The position numbers were made by a program, and so were the translations under genes. Below, in pieces: positions 373 through 20,466 of a stretch of 64,000 nucleotides of DNA. The DNA comes from Deltaproteobacteria bacterium (lineage in GTDB: Bacteria > Desulfobacterota > Desulfobacteria > Desulfobacterales > C00003060). The stretch is from positions 6,830 to 70,829 of the forward strand of contig QMMN01000007.1 of assembly GCA_003647275.1 (NCBI GenBank). Direction: 5' to 3'. The stretch's first letter is position 1. Every line of letters starts with the position of its first letter. The notes below the pieces were generated by a model. The model ran no database searches, was not told where the DNA came from, and saw only the letters and a program-made list of their open reading frames with translations.

Positions 373-1110
373 TCAAAGGTCTGAAAGCTCATCCTTCCAG
401 GTTTTCAATTTACTTGTTTCCGTTGTTTGGTTCCTGATAATCCCGTAAAGATAGTCTTCGCGCTTGCCTTGAGAAGCATAGTCTTTGTCCAGGTAAATTT
501 TAATTCCCGCCTCCACCTGTCCAACAGGGTATCGGTCCCACTTCCGCAGTTGAGCAACCAAAACGCTGTCAGCCACCTTGCCACTCTTGCGGGTTGAACG
601 TATCGCATCAAAGGCTCGGTCTATTAGTTCCTGGTCATCATATCTTTTCCTTAAGGATGAAAAAACTTCGGGGGTTATTTCTTCTTGATTGTTCTTGTTT
701 GTGTTCATTTGATGTTCACCCTGTTGTTCACTTCGCTGTTCACTTCCTTGATATGTCGGCCAGTTACTCACGGTAATTATTGAAAATTTTGTACAAGTTT
801 TGATGTTCAAATTTTCTGTTTTTTCTAAAGTTTTTAACCATCGATATAGCGTTATCGCTGTAGGCTTGAGTTTGCGGCTATATTTGTTCTTGATGTGGCC
901 TTGGTGATACTCGTAATGCAGGGAATCACGACCTGTTATGAATTGACCTGGTTTCAAGTTCACAGGTTCTAATAATCCGGGGACTGACACCTCAATCTCT
1001 TTATGGGTTGCCTTTGTCATGCAAAGTACCCACAACTTTAAAAGTCCTGGATGACTAAAAACATGGGAATCAATAATCTTACGATGTAGCTTTATCCATC
1101 CTCGGTCCAC
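373..1110 (-). CDS. Hypothetical protein of the element replication module (possible replication organiser; function not established)
   Basis: 245-aa ORF immediately downstream of the helicase gene. The N-terminus WIKLHRKIIDSHVF...LLKLWVLCM resembles phage replication-associated wHTH proteins from memory only. Confidence 0.4.
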   Translation of the reverse strand: MDRGWIKLHRKIIDSHVFSHPGLLKLWVLCMTKATHKEIEVSVPGLLEPVNLKPGQFITGRDSLHYEYHQGHIKNKYSRKLKPTAITLYRWLKTLEKTENLNIKTCTKFSIITVSNWPTYQGSEQRSEQQGEHQMNTNKNNQEEITPEVFSSLRKRYDDQELIDRAFDAIRSTRKSGKVADSVLVAQLRKWDRYPVGQVEAGIKIYLDKDYASQGKREDYLYGIIRNQTTETSKLKTWKDELSDL

Positions 1111-1128
1111 GTTCCCCAGCCTTCATGT

Positions 1129-2076
1129 TTAATCTTCTTCAACAATCTTTGTGAAATTGTCTGTAAATCTCAGTTTCTTCTTACCTGTCGGTCCGTGTCT
1201 GTTCTTGCGAATAGCACAAAGAAGAAGCTCCTTATCTTTCTGGTCTCGTTCGAGCCAAAGCCCCAAGTCACAGGCTGCTGCAATTTCACCTGCCCCTTTA
1301 TAGCCGATCACTTTAGAATCGGACCGGGCAGCCTCGTTTGACACCTGGGACATGGCGATAACACAGGTGTTAAGGTCCTTAGCCATTTTCTGAAGTTGGA
1401 TCGGAATAACAGACATCCGGTCATAAATACTGCCTTCGCCCTGCATATTCTGAAGGAAGTCCACAAAGACCACATCAAGGCCTGAAACTAACTTAATCGC
1501 CTTGCACCTGTCATTGATGCCCTGAAAGGTATACACATCGTCATAAATCCAGATGTTTTTTGTGTAGAAGTAATCAAGGGCCTCATCCACCTTGTTTTGA
1601 ATCTCGGGGCTGAACTTACCCCTAAAAATGCTTAACGAAGGAACAACCGTTCTGTTGGACATTAAACGGAGCAAGATGCTCTCAGCGCTCATTTCAGTGC
1701 TGAATATTGCAATTGTGATATTTGGGTTGTGTTCAAGGGCATTCACAATCAATTGAATCATTAATGCAGTCTTTCCATGGGAAGTGTAGCCCCCCACAAT
1801 CCAAAAGTGGGTCTTCAGAAAGCCCTGAATCGTGCTGTCCAAAAAACTAAACCCGGTCCGCTCACCTATCTTTTCTTGTTTTTTGTTTAGGTTGATTCTA
1901 TCGCTCAGACGAAAGGCCACCTGTTTGATTGTGGCGTCCTCAAGCCCTATGCTTGGCCTCTTCTTTTCAAGCACATACTCAGTCAACTTATCTTGCTCTG
2001 CTTCAAGTGCCTGCCCTAGTTGATTGTTACACATACAACTCGCTTCTGAATAGTTGGAGTTTTGCTTGATCGTCAT
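1129..2076 (-). CDS. DnaB-like helicase C-terminal-domain (RecA-fold) ATPase
   Basis: Walker A GGYTSHGKTALM, Walker B-like DVVFVDFLQNM, and C-terminal RKNRHGPTG (arginine-finger region). The true start may be the internal Met at about 2034, because the ORF overlaps the upstream gene. Confidence 0.7.
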   Translation of the reverse strand: MTIKQNSNYSEASCMCNNQLGQALEAEQDKLTEYVLEKKRPSIGLEDATIKQVAFRLSDRINLNKKQEKIGERTGFSFLDSTIQGFLKTHFWIVGGYTSHGKTALMIQLIVNALEHNPNITIAIFSTEMSAESILLRLMSNRTVVPSLSIFRGKFSPEIQNKVDEALDYFYTKNIWIYDDVYTFQGINDRCKAIKLVSGLDVVFVDFLQNMQGEGSIYDRMSVIPIQLQKMAKDLNTCVIAMSQVSNEAARSDSKVIGYKGAGEIAAACDLGLWLERDQKDKELLLCAIRKNRHGPTGKKKLRFTDNFTKIVEED

Positions 2077-2566
2077 TTCCTGCCAGTATGTCTAGGTGGT
2101 GCTCATAAACGGCAAGATCGTGATAGCGTTCGCCATACGTCTCAAGGTCTTCTGGGCTATTGATCTCACCAAGGACTTTCCTGCAAGCTCGGCAAAAGGT
2201 TGCCACTTGGTCCGTTGCCTCGATTTCCCATCTCCTGAAGGCTTCAATCAATTTACGCCGGTGCTGCAATGTTTTGACCTTTTGGCATTGCTCACGGGTC
2301 AAGGGTCCTCGGTCAACGCCCAAAATTTTGAGAGCCTCTTTGAATGTGTAACCATGCAGTCTTTGAATGAAGTCTATGGCGTCCCCATGTTCGCCACATC
2401 CAAAGCAGTGAAAATGCCCATCAGGAAACACAGTGAAAGACGGAGTCTCATCGGCGTGAAAAGGACACAACCCCACGTGCCGGTTACCGGACCGTTTCAA
2501 CTCCACTCCTGCGGCTTCCGCGACGGAAACAAGGTCAACGGAATCTCTAATTACTGATACATCCAT
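2027..2566 (-). CDS. CHC2 zinc-finger (DnaG-type primase N-terminal finger) protein; no TOPRIM domain evident
   Basis: CPFHADETPSFTVFPDGHFHCFGCGEHGDAIDFI is the canonical CHC2 primase zinc-finger signature. At 179 aa the protein is too short for a full primase. Confidence 0.75.
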   Translation of the reverse strand: MDVSVIRDSVDLVSVAEAAGVELKRSGNRHVGLCPFHADETPSFTVFPDGHFHCFGCGEHGDAIDFIQRLHGYTFKEALKILGVDRGPLTREQCQKVKTLQHRRKLIEAFRRWEIEATDQVATFCRACRKVLGEINSPEDLETYGERYHDLAVYEHHLDILAGNDDQAKLQLFRSELYV

Positions 2567-2567
2567 T

Positions 2568-2783
2568 TCAGCCTACCACCCCTACCTCGTTGCCATTTTG
2601 AAAAGCGGGGAAAAAGTCTGCAGGATTCACCCTGAAAACCTCCGCGATTTTCTTGGCCTCCTCTATCTTAGGAGGAATTCCTCGTTCGATTAAACTAACC
2701 CGCCATTGTGGGATGCCGGTCTTTAAAAACAAATCGGTTTGACTCATGCCCCTTTTAATTCGTTCGAGTCGCATTTTAGTCAT
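2568..2783 (-). CDS. XRE-family helix-turn-helix transcriptional regulator
   Basis: 71 aa. MSQTDLFLKTGIPQWRVSLIERG fits the Cro/CI-type HTH. Its stop lies 1 nt from the primase-finger start. Confidence 0.7.
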   Translation of the reverse strand: MTKMRLERIKRGMSQTDLFLKTGIPQWRVSLIERGIPPKIEEAKKIAEVFRVNPADFFPAFQNGNEVGVVG

Positions 2784-3039
2784 TTCTAACCCTCCTCCTT
2801 TAAAATGATTGAACGCAAACCTTCCATCTGCTTTATTTATATTATCGGCATATTTAAGGCTAAGCCAAGCTAGCGCGTTGATAATTATGGAGAAATAATC
2901 TCCCTTAAACTTTCAGTTTTAAGCAGATTTTGTCCCTTTTTAGTGAAAACAAAATTATCGGGATAATAATCTGGATTTAATCACAGGGTGTTTTTTGATA
3001 GGGAAAGGTGGAAGGAATAGTCCTATAATGCAGAAAGGC

Positions 3040-3723
3040 CTACTTTGTGGAAATGTTGCGGGACCGTGCCAAACGCTTCTCGATAGTGGAAGCTTTAATG
3101 TTAAAACCAGTAAGAGAGTTTATAAGTTTTTCAATGTTCTTATAAATAGCTCTTTTTGAAAGGCCGTGGACATATTTTTGGAAGACATTAACCCAGCTAG
3201 GTATCAAATTTTTGTATAAGAGCGTCTCAAATAAAATACTACTCGGTCGGGCTTGTTTTCCCGGAAGTTGATAAATCTCCCTAGATATTAAAGGTCGAGT
3301 TTTTCCTTTTCGGGGCTTCATCAAAAAATCATAAACCTTCTTGTTACAGCGTTTCTCCCAGTCTAAGAAAAGCTTGTGGGTTTTTTGAAGCGCACTTTTA
3401 CGAACAACTTTATATATTATTAGAAAACTTTGCACCTCTTTATACGATCTTTTTAGTTCTTCAAATGCCTTTGCTTGCCTTCCTAGTAGCCCTGCTGGCG
3501 TTGTCACAAAACTATGAATAAAGGAATCTAACTCCATCACCAATTTCGTTATGAACCGATCAATATGTTGGCATGGTTTATAATCTGTCGCTGTTCTATA
3601 GGTTTTTATACCTAACGGATTCTTGTCCACATCGAATTTTATAATGCCGGAACTTATTATTATTTTCTTGCACTCTTCAACGGTAGATTCATCGAACAAT
3701 TTGCGTGATGGTGTGTTCCTCAT
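3040..3723 (-). CDS. Hypothetical protein (AT-rich orphan cargo gene)
   Basis: 227-aa ORF, Lys-rich and in very AT-rich DNA. I recognise no motif. Confidence 0.4.
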   Translation of the reverse strand: MRNTPSRKLFDESTVEECKKIIISSGIIKFDVDKNPLGIKTYRTATDYKPCQHIDRFITKLVMELDSFIHSFVTTPAGLLGRQAKAFEELKRSYKEVQSFLIIYKVVRKSALQKTHKLFLDWEKRCNKKVYDFLMKPRKGKTRPLISREIYQLPGKQARPSSILFETLLYKNLIPSWVNVFQKYVHGLSKRAIYKNIEKLINSLTGFNIKASTIEKRLARSRNISTK

Positions 3724-3928: not shown

Positions 3929-4849
3929 GTGTCTTGCCAAATGCCTTCTAACCGGCCGTCATTTCAAGTGTATGGTCTGGGACAGTGTGCCCTGGACTAC
4001 ATTGGAAAAATAGACGCCTATCCCCCGCCTGATGTGAAGTGCGAGTTTTCTGACATGGTCATCCAGGGTGGCGGACCTGTGGCCACGGCCCTGGTGGCCC
4101 TTGCCAGATGGGGCCTGTCGTGTGTCTTTGCTGGCGTGCTTGGAGATGATCTGTTCAGTAGTATGATCAAGGCCTCTCTGGACGGGGAAGGAATCGATAC
4201 CAGCGGCGTGCTTGTCAGGAAGGGTTTTGACTCCCAGTTTGCCTTTATTGTGGCCGAACCGGGGGCGGGGAGGCGAACCATCTTTTGGCGAAGGCCCACG
4301 GGGCCGCCTCCAAGCCCTGATGAGATCAATTACAGCATCATCAGCCGAGCCAAGGTTGTTCTCACAGATGGGCTCTTTTTAGAGGCCGCCCTTGCCGCAT
4401 GCACGGCCGCCAGAAAAGCTGGGGGCCATGTGGTTGTGGATGCAGGTTCCCTTCGGGAAGGCATGCTTGATCTTGCCAGATTAAGCGATTATTTTATCGC
4501 ATCTGAAACCTTTGCCACAGCCCTTGTGGGAGACGACAAGCCGATGGAAGCTTGTAAGCGGCTCGCAGAACTTGGACCCCGGGTGGTGGGCGTCACACTG
4601 GGCCCAAGGGGTTATGTGGCCCTGGCTCAGGGAAAAGTCATTAAGAAATCCGCATACCCTGTCGAGGCCGTCGATACGACGGGCTGTGGCGATGTCTTTC
4701 ATGCCGGCTTCATCTATGGTCTGATCCAAGGGTGGGACATTGAGAAAAGCCTCGACTTTGCCGCCTGGGCGGCTGCCATGGTCAGCCGCAAACTGGGCGG
4801 GCGAGCCGGTATCCCCTCTCTTAAGGCGCTTTTGAAACATGGTTATTAA
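3929..4849 (+). CDS. PfkB-family carbohydrate (ribokinase-like) kinase
   Basis: C-terminal DTTGCGDVFHAGFIYG (PfkB signature 2) and N-terminal GLGQCALDYIG. The start may be GTG 3929 or ATG 3941. Confidence 0.8.
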   Translation: MSCQMPSNRPSFQVYGLGQCALDYIGKIDAYPPPDVKCEFSDMVIQGGGPVATALVALARWGLSCVFAGVLGDDLFSSMIKASLDGEGIDTSGVLVRKGFDSQFAFIVAEPGAGRRTIFWRRPTGPPPSPDEINYSIISRAKVVLTDGLFLEAALAACTAARKAGGHVVVDAGSLREGMLDLARLSDYFIASETFATALVGDDKPMEACKRLAELGPRVVGVTLGPRGYVALAQGKVIKKSAYPVEAVDTTGCGDVFHAGFIYGLIQGWDIEKSLDFAAWAAAMVSRKLGGRAGIPSLKALLKHGY

Positions 4850-4894
4850 ACCCGAATTTCGCAAGTATCGCAGGCTACTTATTACCACCAGGAG

Positions 4895-5008
4895 GTGAGG
4901 GAAACCGCTGAACGCAGGCCCACAGCCATTTCCACCCAGTACAACAGCACGCCAGGTAAAGGCATTGGGGGCTGGAGTGAAGTGGTTTCCCTCACCGTAA
5001 TGGTGAAT
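4895..5008. repeat. Copy A of a ~115-nt hairpin element (second copy at 18940-19056)
   Basis: The 16-bp terminal helix GGTGAGGGAAACCGCT / AGTGGTTTCCCTCACC encloses the conserved blocks GCCATTTCCACC, TAAAGGC and TTGGGGGC. The conserved tail is AATGGTGAA. Confidence 0.7.
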
Positions 5009-5086
5009 ACCGAAACCATTGTGTGAGGCCCCAGGGTAGGACCAGCACTGAATCCGTGCAAAATTCAGTTTAATAGGGACATCTTT

Positions 5087-5761
5087 ATGTATCGTAAGCA
5101 GCTTGTAAGAATCTTGGTTTTCTTTGTTTTTGTATCAGGCACGCTGGCCATGGCTGGCCTGGCAGGTAATGAGCCTGCGGCCGTAAGACAGGTTGAGGAT
5201 TTTTCCAGGTTCAAGATCGGCACATTTCCTGAAGGCTGGAAATCCCGCGGCGGGGACGCATCCCAGGTGTACAGGGTCAGGGCAAACCAGGAAAGCTATC
5301 TTGAAGCAAAGGCGATCAATTCAGCCGTTACAATTGCCAAGGAATTTGAGTACGATCTTAGAGCATATCCTTTCCTGACATGGCAGTGGCGTGTGATTCA
5401 ATGCCCGAAAGGCGGCGATGAGAGATACAAGAAAACAGGCGACAGTGCGGCCGCCATCTACGTTATCTTCCCGGCCCTTTTCAGACCGAACAACATCAAG
5501 TATGTATGGAGTGCTTCCCTGCCCATCGGCACAACGACTGAGAGCCCGTATAGCAGCAAGACCAAGATCATAGTGCTCCGGAACCAGTCTTCGCCCCTTG
5601 GGACCTGGGTGTCCGAGAAGGTCAACGTTTACGAAGATTACAAGAGACTGTTCGGCCATGAGCCCGAACAGGTGAAAGCTATTGGACTCATGTCCGATTC
5701 AGACAACACCAAATCCAGAAGTGAGGCTCATTACAAAAAGATAAGTATAAGCAGACAATAG
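5087..5761 (+). CDS. Secreted DUF3047-like protein
   Basis: N-terminal signal-like hydrophobic segment. The motifs PFLTWQWRV and GDSAAAIYVIF match my memory of the DUF3047 family. Not verified. Confidence 0.5.
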   Translation: MYRKQLVRILVFFVFVSGTLAMAGLAGNEPAAVRQVEDFSRFKIGTFPEGWKSRGGDASQVYRVRANQESYLEAKAINSAVTIAKEFEYDLRAYPFLTWQWRVIQCPKGGDERYKKTGDSAAAIYVIFPALFRPNNIKYVWSASLPIGTTTESPYSSKTKIIVLRNQSSPLGTWVSEKVNVYEDYKRLFGHEPEQVKAIGLMSDSDNTKSRSEAHYKKISISRQ

Positions 5762-18793: not shown

Positions 18794-18842
18794 ATCAACT
18801 CTCCACAGGCTGTTGCCCAAATCACCGAAATGCAAATGTGAA

Positions 18843-18909
18843 GCCTCCCCGCCCTCCCGGGCAGGGATTCTGCCTGACGGCAGCGCTTCGCGTCCGGGGA
18901 GCAGGCCGG
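18843..18909. repeat. GC-rich multi-hairpin (cloverleaf-like) repeat, copy 1 (copy 2 at 47403-47470)
   Basis: The outer helix CTCCCCG/CGGGGAG encloses three hairpins: GCCC-tccc-GGGC, CTGCC-tgac-GGCAG and CGC-ttc-GCG. The 3' two-thirds is near-identical to the second copy. Confidence 0.7.
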
Positions 18910-18939
18910 TCAATATGTAAAATGCTCAAACAGTCTAAA

Positions 18940-19056
18940 GGGTAAGGAAATCCGCTAAGCATAGGTTTCCGGCCATTTCCACCGACAATAATCGCATACC
19001 GGCTAAAGGCGTTGGGGGCCGATGAGAAGCGGTTTTTCTTACCCTGAATGGTGAAC
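18940..19056. repeat. Copy B of the ~115-nt hairpin element (copy A at 4895-5008)
   Basis: The terminal helix GGGTAAGGAAATCCGCT / AGCGGTTTTTCTTACCC differs from copy A in a way that keeps base-pairing. The internal conserved blocks are the same. Confidence 0.7.
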
Positions 19057-19068
19057 TATTGCAAACTT

Positions 19069-20466
19069 TCAGTATTCAAGGCACAGCTTTGAAAAGCCTT
19101 CTTCTGGCGGTATGGGATACTTACCATTAAAACAGGCCAAACAAAAACCATCCTTTTCAAGTCCCGTAGCCTCAAGCATGCCAGGAAGGCTCAGATAGCA
19201 AAGGCTGTCCAGCCCGATAAAGTTTTTCACCTCTTCCACCGTGTGCTGGGAGGCAATCAGTTCCCCCTTGGTCGAAAAGTCAATACCGTAGTAACAAGGA
19301 TAACGGTGAGGCGGGCAACTTACCACCATGTGAATTTCCCTAGCCCCGGCTTCCCGCAAGGTCTTAATGCGCATCTTGCTCGTGGTACCCCGTATGATCG
19401 AGTCTTCGACAATCACGACACGTTTCCGTTTAAGAATTTCACGAACCGGGTTGAGTTTAACCTTCACCCCGAAGTCCCGCATGGATTGGGCAGGCTCAAT
19501 AAAGGTCCTCCCCACGTAATGGTTCCGGATGACCCCCATCTCCAAGGGTATGCCTGATCCATGACAGAAACCAATGGCGGCATAGTTTCCAGAATCTGGG
19601 AAGGGCATGGCAAAGTCGGCCTCAAGGGGATATTCCTCGGCCAATTTTTTCCCAAGCCTCTTTCGCACAGTATAAACATTCTGGCCAAAGATATTGCTGT
19701 CGGGCCTGGCAAAATAGATAAATTCGAAGATGCAAAATGTACTCCTGCGTTCGGCAAAAGGCCTGATTGACCTTAACCCATCTTGACCAATGATCAATAT
19801 CTCGCCTGGATCAATATCTCTGATATACTGAGCATCTATCAGATCGAGGGCGCATGTCTCAGAGGCGACAATATAGCTCCCGTTGAGCGCTCCAAGACAC
19901 ATGGGACGGAACCCATTGGGGTCCCTGAAAGCCATAAGCTTATCTTCAGTCATCAAGACGCAACAATAAGCCCCTTGAATCTCAGAAACTGCCTTGACCA
20001 CGGCCTCTTCCACCCCATCTTGTATGTTGCGGGCCAGCAGGTGGACGATGATCTCGCTGTCCATGGTGGTCTGAAAAATAGAACCTCTCTTTTCAAGATC
20101 TCCCCTCAGCTTTTTGGCATTGGTGAGATTCCCGTTGTGGGCAATGGCCAGGGTCTTTCCCGCATGGGAAACGACAAACGGTTGGGCGTTTTTGGCAATA
20201 GAAGACCCGGTCGTGGAATATCTAACATGCCCAATGCCTATGTGGCCGCGTAGCGTATTCAAGATCGGTTCATTGAAGACCTCATGGACAAGCCCCATCC
20301 CCTTGTGTTCTTGAATTGACTTACCCGTAGAGGTCACGATACCAGCACTTTCCTGTCCCCGGTGCTGAAGAGCATAGAGCCCAAAATAGGTTAACTTTGA
20401 GGCATCATCGTGTCCGAATACACCAAAGACGCCACATGACTCTTTTGGCCCATGACAAAGTTTCAT
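19069..20466 (-). CDS. purF: Amidophosphoribosyltransferase
   Basis: A short propeptide followed by CGVFGVFGH (Ntn Cys), plus a PRTase domain with VVIVEDSIIRGTT. Confidence 0.95.
   Translation of the reverse strand: MKLCHGPKESCGVFGVFGHDDASKLTYFGLYALQHRGQESAGIVTSTGKSIQEHKGMGLVHEVFNEPILNTLRGHIGIGHVRYSTTGSSIAKNAQPFVVSHAGKTLAIAHNGNLTNAKKLRGDLEKRGSIFQTTMDSEIIVHLLARNIQDGVEEAVVKAVSEIQGAYCCVLMTEDKLMAFRDPNGFRPMCLGALNGSYIVASETCALDLIDAQYIRDIDPGEILIIGQDGLRSIRPFAERRSTFCIFEFIYFARPDSNIFGQNVYTVRKRLGKKLAEEYPLEADFAMPFPDSGNYAAIGFCHGSGIPLEMGVIRNHYVGRTFIEPAQSMRDFGVKVKLNPVREILKRKRVVIVEDSIIRGTTSKMRIKTLREAGAREIHMVVSCPPHRYPCYYGIDFSTKGELIASQHTVEEVKNFIGLDSLCYLSLPGMLEATGLEKDGFCLACFNGKYPIPPEEGFSKLCLEY

Follow-up and report, generated by a model that had tools for sequence, protein, structure and literature searches.

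The window analyzed here, a 64,000-nucleotide stretch of contig QMMN01000007.1 from a Deltaproteobacteria bacterium, carries two copies, A and B, of a short repeated element on its plus strand. A preliminary description made from the sequence had reported a pair of ~115-nt copies, and we recovered both in the same orientation at 4894-5008 and 18940-19056. The element at copy A is real, but it begins at 4894, one base ahead of the 4895 first given. nhmmer placed copy A at 4894-5008 and copy B at 18940-19055, and the two copies are about 72% identical, with blastn values of 71-75%. Neither nhmmer nor the family covariance model described below found a third copy in the window.

The gene contexts reported for the two copies are correct. 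Copy A lies ahead of a plus-strand gene, between a pfkB-family kinase gene (3929-4849, plus) and a DUF3047 gene (5087-5761, plus). Copy B sits between two minus-strand genes, in the spacer that separates the stop codon of purF (19069-20466, minus) from the probable start of an iron alcohol dehydrogenase gene at about 18793 (minus). It is antisense to an operon-like run of genes comprising carB, purF, adh, degT, a cytidylyltransferase gene, and a glmS-like gene. We conclude that both stretches are very probably copies of a ~136-146-bp family of transposable elements of the miniature inverted-repeat kind (MITEs) found in Desulfobacterales-like bacteria. The parts of each copy are listed here by window coordinate, with P1 and P2 denoting the outer and inner helices of the folded interior.

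4875-5015, plus: copy A, full element (covariance model R1, 125.3 bits, E 1.8e-32, model positions 1-141)
4880-4893, plus: copy A, left terminal repeat in degenerate form, TATTACCACCAGGA; intact copies have GTAATAGTTCACC at the aligned position
4894-4909, plus: copy A, P1 5' arm GGTGAGGGAAACCGCT, forming 16 pairs with 4981-4996, one of them G.U; supported by family covariation
4910-4916, plus: copy A, 5' side of the 7x7 internal loop, GAACGCA; columns identical in 24-31 of 31 family copies
4917-4925, plus: copy A, P2 5' arm GGCCCACAG, pairing with 4965-4973; family pairs 47-101 and 48-100 covary
4926-4964, plus: copy A, apical region, in which a GCC/GGC clamp closes a ~33-nt loop (ATTTCCACC ... 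ACAACAGCA ... AAA)
4965-4973, plus: copy A, P2 3' arm TTGGGGGCT, partner of 4917-4925
4974-4980, plus: copy A, 3' side of the 7x7 internal loop, GGAGTGA, marked by family column conservation
4981-4996, plus: copy A, P1 3' arm AGTGGTTTCCCTCACC, partner of 4894-4909
4997-5010, plus: copy A, degenerate right terminal repeat GTAATGGTGAATAC, which includes the AATGGTGAA block
18922-19067, plus: copy B, full element (covariance model R1, 116.8 bits, E 5.1e-30)
18927-18939, plus: copy B, left terminal repeat in decayed form, CAAACAGTCTAAA; locus L020 has GTAACAGTTCAGG
18940-18956, plus: copy B, P1 5' arm GGGTAAGGAAATCCGCT, pairing with 19028-19044
18964-18972, plus: copy B, P2 5' arm GGTTTCCGG, pairing with 19012-19020
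19012-19020, plus: copy B, P2 3' arm TTGGGGGCC, partner of 18964-18972
19028-19044, plus: copy B, P1 3' arm AGCGGTTTTTCTTACCC, partner of 18940-18956
19050-19062, plus: copy B, right terminal repeat GGTGAACTATTGC, read as GCAATAGTTCACC on the minus strand at 19062

Terminal repeats, target-site duplications, and empty sites

We collected relatives of the two copies using patterns drawn from their conserved blocks. Searching one genome per species returned a single locus (L001), in a Desulfobacterales metagenome-assembled genome. A slightly looser core pattern searched over metagenome contigs returned 82 loci, about 40 of which are true copies. Alignment A3, which contains 31 copies falling into 23 clusters at 90% identity and so points to a diverse family, was used to build covariance model R1. 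This model found 43 forward-strand copies in the collected loci, which come from sediment metagenomes and the Desulfobacterales genome, including copies outside the search pattern, and it placed two copies on each of the L015 and L044 contigs, as in the window. The conserved blocks noted in the preliminary description are real, but the search pattern required GCCATTTCCACC and AAAGGCNTTGG, so that their invariance across the family is partly a matter of ascertainment. The AATGGTGAA block does not belong with the single-stranded-looking blocks, among which it had been counted; it is part of the right terminal inverted repeat region and occurs in one subfamily only.

The relatives show the hallmarks of a MITE. 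The unit is 136-146 bp long and has no coding capacity, its ends are terminal inverted repeats flanked by a duplication of fixed length, and its copies are dispersed at sites that can be found empty. Every copy examined is intergenic. Open reading frames (ORFs) that overlap the copies in L077, L041, and L054 represent read-through or mis-called starts as judged with Pfam, and the ORF overlapping the L020 copy contains no Pfam domain. Terminal inverted repeats of ~13-15 bp are present in many copies. The left end follows the consensus G(T/C)AA..GTTCA and is typically GTAATAGTTCACC (once GTAAGCGCTCAGG, at L015:3252), while the right end is GGTGAACTRTTAC or GTGAACTGTTAC; variants of these ends also occur. 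In a second subfamily the left end is GTAACAGTTCAGG or a related form and the right end is AATGGTGAACTATTAC.

Target-site duplications of 8 bp abut the terminal repeats exactly. Five copies have perfect duplications (L002, CCAAACTT; L011, TTCACTTT; L015, GAATTTTG; L040, AGTGAATT; L048, GAAAAAAG), and the probability that an 8-mer matches exactly by chance at a fixed position is about 1.5e-5. Nine more (L052, L056, L064, L071, L020, L018, L014, L060, and L053) match at seven of eight bases. We left an apparent 7/8 duplication at L001 uncounted because it is A-rich and offset from the expected boundary. The insertion targets are AT-rich intergenic DNA. Near-identical copies differ in their duplications and flanks and are therefore independent insertions. 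The copies are randomly oriented with respect to the nearest ORFs: 12 share their strand with the upstream gene and 19 do not, and for the gene downstream the counts are 16 and 17, respectively. The preliminary description had offered a miniature inverted-repeat element as an alternative to a structured small RNA. Inspecting the relatives for terminal repeats and target-site duplications, as it had proposed, upheld that alternative through dozens of copies with terminal repeats, exact or near-exact 8-bp duplications, random orientation, and empty syntenic sites.

The empty sites were found at both window loci. Relatives that keep the pfkB-DUF3047 arrangement, with proteins 74-75% identical, have spacers in which the family model found no match (177 bp in L089 and L093, 75 bp in L094 and L095). 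Relatives that keep carB, purF, adh, and degT, with a dehydrogenase 78% identical, likewise gave no model match in the purF-alcohol dehydrogenase spacer (50 bp in both L097 and L098, and 223 bp of unrelated sequence in L096). Since the syntenic spacers are empty in relatives, neither copy is a conserved regulator of its neighbors. Five strain-level contigs that encode the identical DUF3047 protein all contain copy A.

Some observations on the window copies themselves weigh against calling them MITEs. Neither has a recognizable target-site duplication, with the 8-mers flanking copy B matching at only four of eight positions, and their terminal repeats are degenerate. Their status as MITEs depends on homology and on the empty syntenic sites. 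We infer that copies A and B are old, immobile insertions whose ends and duplications have decayed. Copy B has kept only its right terminal repeat (GGTGAACTATTGC), which ends 6 nt before the stop codon of purF on the opposite strand. For annotation, both stretches are best labeled as relic copies of a mobile repeat and not as regulatory RNAs of the DUF3047, purF, or alcohol dehydrogenase gene.

The same ends occur on another element. A 195-bp unit at L020:430-624 has an unrelated interior between matching terminal repeats (TTTATAGTTCACCCC...GGGGTGAACTATTAC) and an 8-bp duplication, CGTTGATT. Since it shares both the ends and the duplication size, one transposase seems to move several nonautonomous cargos.

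Copy A is further enclosed by an outer inverted repeat, whose arms are as follows.

4846-4865, plus: left arm of the outer inverted repeat around copy A, TTAAACCCGAATTTCGCAAG; it overlaps the pfkB stop codon
5056-5073, plus: right arm of the outer inverted repeat around copy A, GTGCAAAATTCAGTTTAA

This outer repeat also surrounds the copies in L017 and L042 and is found on one side of the copy in L054; we saw no clear target duplication at its ends. It may be another small mobile palindrome that the element entered. We considered and rejected orthology between copy A and the copies in L017, L042, and L003, since the flank they have in common is the outer inverted repeat of the unit and the neighboring genes differ. 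The subfamily typified by L053 has a different extra shell, GGCAACGTTCAAAAGTTG, with the 8-bp duplication located outside the shell.

The folded interior

Between the terminal repeats, alignment A3 (31 copies) supports a rod-like fold made up of P1, a 7x7 internal loop, P2, a clamp, and an apical loop. P1 has 19 pairs, 17 of which have changed on both sides among the copies, and 88.8% of the aligned cells remain paired. The covariation score for the whole structure was 0.279, compared to 0.137 for shuffles (none of 500 reached 0.279) and at most 0.098 for slid partners; these controls are not phylogeny-aware. The 7x7 loop is purine-rich, with GAACGTA (GAACGUA in RNA) opposite GAAGNGA and a constant C-G pair in its middle. 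P2 is a 9-bp helix of GGCCTCCAG with TTGGAGGCC in which two pairs covary. It is capped by an invariant GCC/GGC clamp and an apical loop of ~37 nt in the family.

These results revise the structure proposed at first. The arms quoted for the long helix do differ between copies A and B while staying complementary within each, and the covariation of this helix is borne out by the double changes in P1. The inner helix CAGCC/GGCTG versus CGGCC/GGCCG did not hold up, since its second pair is A.C in 28 of the 31 copies. The supported inner helix is instead P2, GGCCCACAG/TTGGGGGCT in copy A (4917-4925 with 4965-4973), in a different register. Nor does the covarying helix represent co-evolving ends of the element, as had been suggested, because it sits inside the true terminal repeats. 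We rejected two further structures. An apical hairpin, P4, is paired in 51.6% of cells and shifts register between copies. A pseudoknot between a 3' AAUGG and CCAUU in the loop is possible only in the AATGG subfamily and is absent from the GTGAACTGTTAC subfamily.

Both window copies fold more stably than shuffled sequence. Each has one G.U pair in P1, and copy B has one T.T mismatch in addition. Compared to dinucleotide shuffles, the stability of the fold corresponds to z-scores of -4.0 (A) and -3.7 (B), and none of 200 shuffles was as stable.

Several copies elsewhere depart from the canonical rod. L044 carries a full copy at 26-171 and, on the same contig, a deletion derivative at 714-846 that lacks the 3' strands of P2 and P1 and in which the right terminal repeat TGAACTTTTAC directly follows TTGGGGGC. 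Extra GC-rich hairpins occur at defined points of the rod in other copies (L015:3243-3448; L052:4524-4691; L013, L053, L025, and L048). The one in L015 places 65 nt between AAAGGCA and TTGG, the one in L052 is in the P2 5' arm, and in L025 and L048 a hairpin takes the place of the P2 5' arm. These could be expansion segments or inserted small palindromic repeats. We set aside the reading of those in L015 (second copy), L052, L013, and L053 as RNA expansion segments, since GC-rich palindromic repeats present in these genomes could have inserted there.

Taken over cluster representatives, the mean pairwise identity of the 7x7 loops is 0.83, compared to 0.67 for the P1 arms and ~0.3-0.4 for the terminal repeats, the last value being lowered in part by register shifts between subfamilies. 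The 7x7 loop lies outside the search pattern and is still conserved, and the apical loop is also better conserved than the stems. That the structure is under selection, as the preliminary description implied, is supported to this extent: the stems covary while the internal loops stay the same. Selection seems to act on the interior fold more than on the ends. Co-evolution of transposase-binding ends cannot explain P1, because P1 lies inside the ends and the unrelated element at L020:430-624 has the ends without P1. We infer that the interior has been selected to fold as a single strand.

RNA is slightly favored as the folded form, and the evidence on strand and nucleic acid type is weak. G.U pairs outnumber A.C pairs 35 to 18 at the 90%-cluster level. 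The alifold energy is -36.8 kcal/mol for the plus strand versus -25.6 for the minus strand, and five of the nine P2 pairs in copy B are G.U wobbles that are possible on the plus strand only. Our best guess is that the rod would act as RNA after read-through from neighboring genes, in which case the transcript could form a stable hairpin that is recognized by a protein or RNase. A number of results pull in the other direction. The G.U excess is only about 2 to 1 (p ~0.02), and the events counted are not fully independent. Single-sequence folding energies show no strand preference (11 versus 11). The invariance of CCATTTCCACC and AAAGGCNTTGG across the family was imposed by the search pattern. 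Consensus scans, in which sigma-70-type promoters were the promoter class covered, found neither such a promoter nor an intrinsic terminator near either copy; the stretch from the left end to P1 is too short to hold a promoter; and the orientation to host transcription is random. No sigma-54 or sigma-70 promoter was seen within the element, either by eye or by scan.

The strongest competing explanation is that the element is a plain MITE without a selected fold. The interior would then be a long imperfect palindrome whose arms are kept complementary by DNA-level processes such as template switching or gene conversion between them, and the conserved loops would reflect recent common ancestry together with pattern-based ascertainment. 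The equal folding of single sequences on both strands, the two blocks fixed by the search pattern, the random orientation, and the lack of a promoter or terminator all agree with this explanation, as does the accumulation of P1 mismatches in recently inserted copies. However, palindrome correction is disfavored because it should erase the 7x7 loop, yet this unsearched loop is identical in 24-31 of 31 copies at each column and has been made complementary in no copy across 23 clusters that differ by more than 10%. Stems that are 88.8% paired at a pairwise identity of 0.67, and the preference for G.U over A.C, also count against it. We consider a plain MITE of this kind a serious but improbable alternative, and the same holds for common ancestry and ascertainment as the source of loop conservation.

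A more specific version of selection on the fold is that the rod is a functional structured RNA module, carried as cargo in MITE shells whose ends differ. We saw three such shells, one of the GTAATAG type, one of the GGCAACGTTC type, and the TTAAACCCGAATTTCGCAAG repeat on the outside. The module might bind a protein or be recognized by an RNase, possibly through a loop-E-like motif; the internal loop, which is symmetric and purine-rich and has tandem G.A/A.G flanking a Watson-Crick pair, presumably resembles RNA motifs of the loop-E type. We regard this proposal as tentative and would bet against it, if not heavily. If it is true, the module would alter the fate of the host transcript in which it lands or serve the transposon, and it would count as a portable and mobile RNA device rather than as junk DNA. 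With a role at the RNA level, the family would offer a tractable case in which DNA transposition spreads a structured RNA module.

The fold might instead be a cis-acting DNA structure, either a single-stranded hairpin or an extruded cruciform, that draws the terminal repeats toward each other, as needed for efficient mobilization, and is selected for transposition competence. The fold is kept in recently mobile copies with intact duplications in several subfamilies, both strands fold about equally well, and the terminal repeats extend the same hairpin. But the element at L020:430-624 transposed with an unrelated interior, so the core is not required by that transposase. Conservation is also higher in the core (0.83 and 0.67) than in the terminal repeats (~0.3-0.4), and the presence of the core inside different outer shells fits a cargo better than a transposase-recognition device. 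We consider a DNA structure that serves transposition unlikely, though still a live rival.

The last alternative, a nonmobile multicopy chromosomal small RNA (sRNA) gene or a riboswitch-like cis-regulatory leader with incidental flanking repeats, can claim the strong P1 covariation, the conserved loops, and the placement of copy A and the L001 copy upstream of and codirectional with a gene, but it is largely refuted and in our estimate barely credible given 8-bp duplications that abut the terminal repeats precisely in 14 copies or more, random orientation, unrelated neighbor genes, both window sites empty in syntenic relatives, and no Rfam match, promoter, or terminator. The Rfam comparison suggested in the preliminary description returned nothing at gathering score from Rfam 15 for the whole window. 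For both copies and L015, searched at E up to 10, the only matches were at chance level (mir-9195, RAGATH-35, snoRNAs, and Fluoride at E 0.8). The neighboring genes of the copies encode DUF3047, PurF and the iron alcohol dehydrogenase (both opposite to the strand of copy B), a GT4 glycosyltransferase, and UvrA-like proteins. With no Rfam match, no sigma-70-type promoter or intrinsic terminator in the scans, and no conserved gene context, the structured small RNA of the preliminary description does not hold up as a riboswitch and is most unlikely as a stand-alone sRNA gene. Two specific regulatory roles fell to the random orientation, unrelated neighbors, and empty syntenic sites: an antitermination leader of polysaccharide operons, prompted by a NusG-like gene beside L001, and a glutamine or nitrogen regulator, prompted by the amidotransferase cluster in the window.

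Candidate transposases and known elements

Having no genes of its own, the element would be moved in trans, probably by a DDE transposase generating staggered cuts of 8 bp; the fixed 8-bp duplication together with the terminal inverted repeats points to such an enzyme. Mobilization of the IS66 type is favored as the best fit to the GTAA(GCG) ends and the duplication size. Insertion sequences (ISs) of the IS66 family have 20-30-bp repeats that start with GTAAGCG, and they generate 8-bp direct repeats (PMC11946415). The 8-bp direct repeats of our family agree with this description (PMC11946415), and both groups have ends that start with GTAA. The exact GTAAGCG start is found in one copy, L015:3252 (GTAAGCGCTCAGG); GCAAGCG is found in L018 and L057, and most copies begin with GTAATAG or GTAACAG. 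In other respects the family differs from IS66 elements. It lacks tnpA, tnpB, and tnpC, its commonest end GTAATAGTTCACC departs from GTAAGCG after position 4, and its repeats are ~13-15 bp long versus the 20-30 bp quoted for IS66.

A difficulty for the IS66 assignment is that searches of the collected loci and the window, and of plasmid, phage, and viral-contig sequences, gave no autonomous parent IS with matching ends. Pairs of terminal repeats in all loci revealed none, no transposase is encoded among the window ORFs, and BLAST against plasmids and phages gave no match. A scan of viral contigs for GTAATAGTTCACCCC gave 35 matches, and the only inverted pair (L102) lies within coding sequence and is not an IS. 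Because no parent was found, the assignment draws solely on the end sequence and the duplication size.

The element could instead be moved by another family that generates 8-bp duplications, such as IS6/IS26, ISL3, IS256, or IS1595. No IS66 gene was found near any copy, and the L053-type outer repeat GGCAACGTTCAAAAG resembles the IS6/IS26 signature, which consists of a GG start, a G at position 7, and an 8-bp duplication (PMC6807381). This likeness is limited to the L053 outer shell, however, and most intact ends start with GTAA or GCAA, not GG. The copy that starts exactly with GTAAGCG, the hallmark of IS66 (PMC11946415), and the GCAAGCG ends of L018 and L057 also argue against a different family. 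We judge one of these other families to be a possible but rather doubtful source of the transposase.

We compared the family to other dispersed repeats and structured elements. Like other bacterial MITEs (e.g., MITEPsy1), it is small and noncoding, with terminal inverted repeats, a fixed-length duplication, dispersed intergenic copies, and probable mobilization in trans; we use the term MITE as in PMC3189936. Conservation in a typical MITE lies in its terminal repeats. Here the interior is better conserved than the ends, and it shows extensive compensatory change across subfamilies and a conserved 7x7 purine-rich loop. The Correia elements of Neisseria and RUP of Streptococcus are comparable MITEs. 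The conserved, foldable interior is reminiscent of ERIC or Correia elements, but the family has no sequence in common with anything that was searched. The departure is modest: the family behaves as other bacterial MITEs do, the twist being that the cargo is the best-conserved part and that the same cargo occurs in different shells.

ERIC (enterobacterial repetitive intergenic consensus, or IRU) sequences are imperfect palindromes of ~127 bp in intergenic transcribed regions, and folding of their transcripts has been discussed. The element shares with them its intergenic position, its imperfect palindromic form, and a similar size. It has no sequence similarity to ERIC and belongs to another host group, and ERIC is not known to have the clear terminal repeats and defined duplication that are both present here. 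REP, BIME, and REPIN sequences, mobilized by RAYT (Y1) transposases, are dispersed intergenic palindromes that fold as single strands. REPs are 20-40 nt long and are not known to leave a target-site duplication, in contrast to the ~140-bp units with 8-bp duplications described here. In integron attC sites, the arm sequences vary while complementarity is kept because the folded single strand is recognized. The arms of our element also vary yet stay complementary, but there is no R''/R' (RYYYAAC/GTTRRRY) core, cassette array, or nearby integrase, and target duplications are present. The structured RNAs of Rfam 15, riboswitches included, resemble the element in its rod-like fold, covarying stems, and conserved loops. 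They differ in that no match was better than E ~0.8 and that the element has no conserved gene context.

The family is common in uncultured relatives of sulfate reducers, occurs in sediment Desulfobacterales, has IS66-type ends, and is apparently undescribed (compared to Rfam). The same genomes contain at least one other element with identical ends and another GC-rich repeat family. The window itself holds two relic copies, which would gain in significance only if the rod turned out to act as a functional RNA that is portable.

Surroundings of the two copies

A second, unrelated repeat of ~75 nt, TGAAGCCTCCCCGCCCTCCCGGGCAGGGATTCTGCCTGACGGCAGCGCTTCGCGTCCGGGGAGCAGGCCGGTCAA, lies at 18838-18914 (plus), directly to the left of copy B. 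It has no Rfam match and contains the GC-rich hairpins CCCCGCCC..GGGCGGGG and TTCTGCC..GGCAG. Sequences 81-94% identical to it recur in L014, L060, L018, L056, L015, L065, and L074.

Upstream of pfkB, the window encodes a DnaB-like helicase fragment, a DnaG zinc-ribbon fragment, an HTH_3 gene, and a 227-aa ORF without a family (373-3723). In a comparison that included L085-L087, two other contigs also carry this set. Three Joint Genome Institute (JGI) contigs with the identical DUF3047 protein have instead a sensor-kinase/response-regulator gene upstream and a shorter pfkB (293 aa). The difference looks like a strain-level insertion or replacement by a mobile-element remnant.

The window is a chromosomal stretch rich in glutamine-amidotransferase and nitrogen-metabolism genes, and between 5945 and 42476 the genes for glutamine-dependent amidotransferases and nitrogen assimilation form an unusually dense cluster. 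Its members include an asparagine synthase of the XrtA/PEP-CTERM type, a NifA-like sigma-54 activator, pyrG, a gene for a 1245-aa GlmS-like protein, purF, carB, guaA, carA, hisF/hisH, glutamate-synthase-like genes, nadE, and glnA. The cluster also encodes a 1285-aa protein with matches to GlnE and weaker GlnD-like matches. The gene order carB-purF-adh-degT-cytidylyltransferase-glmS-like is common to relatives.

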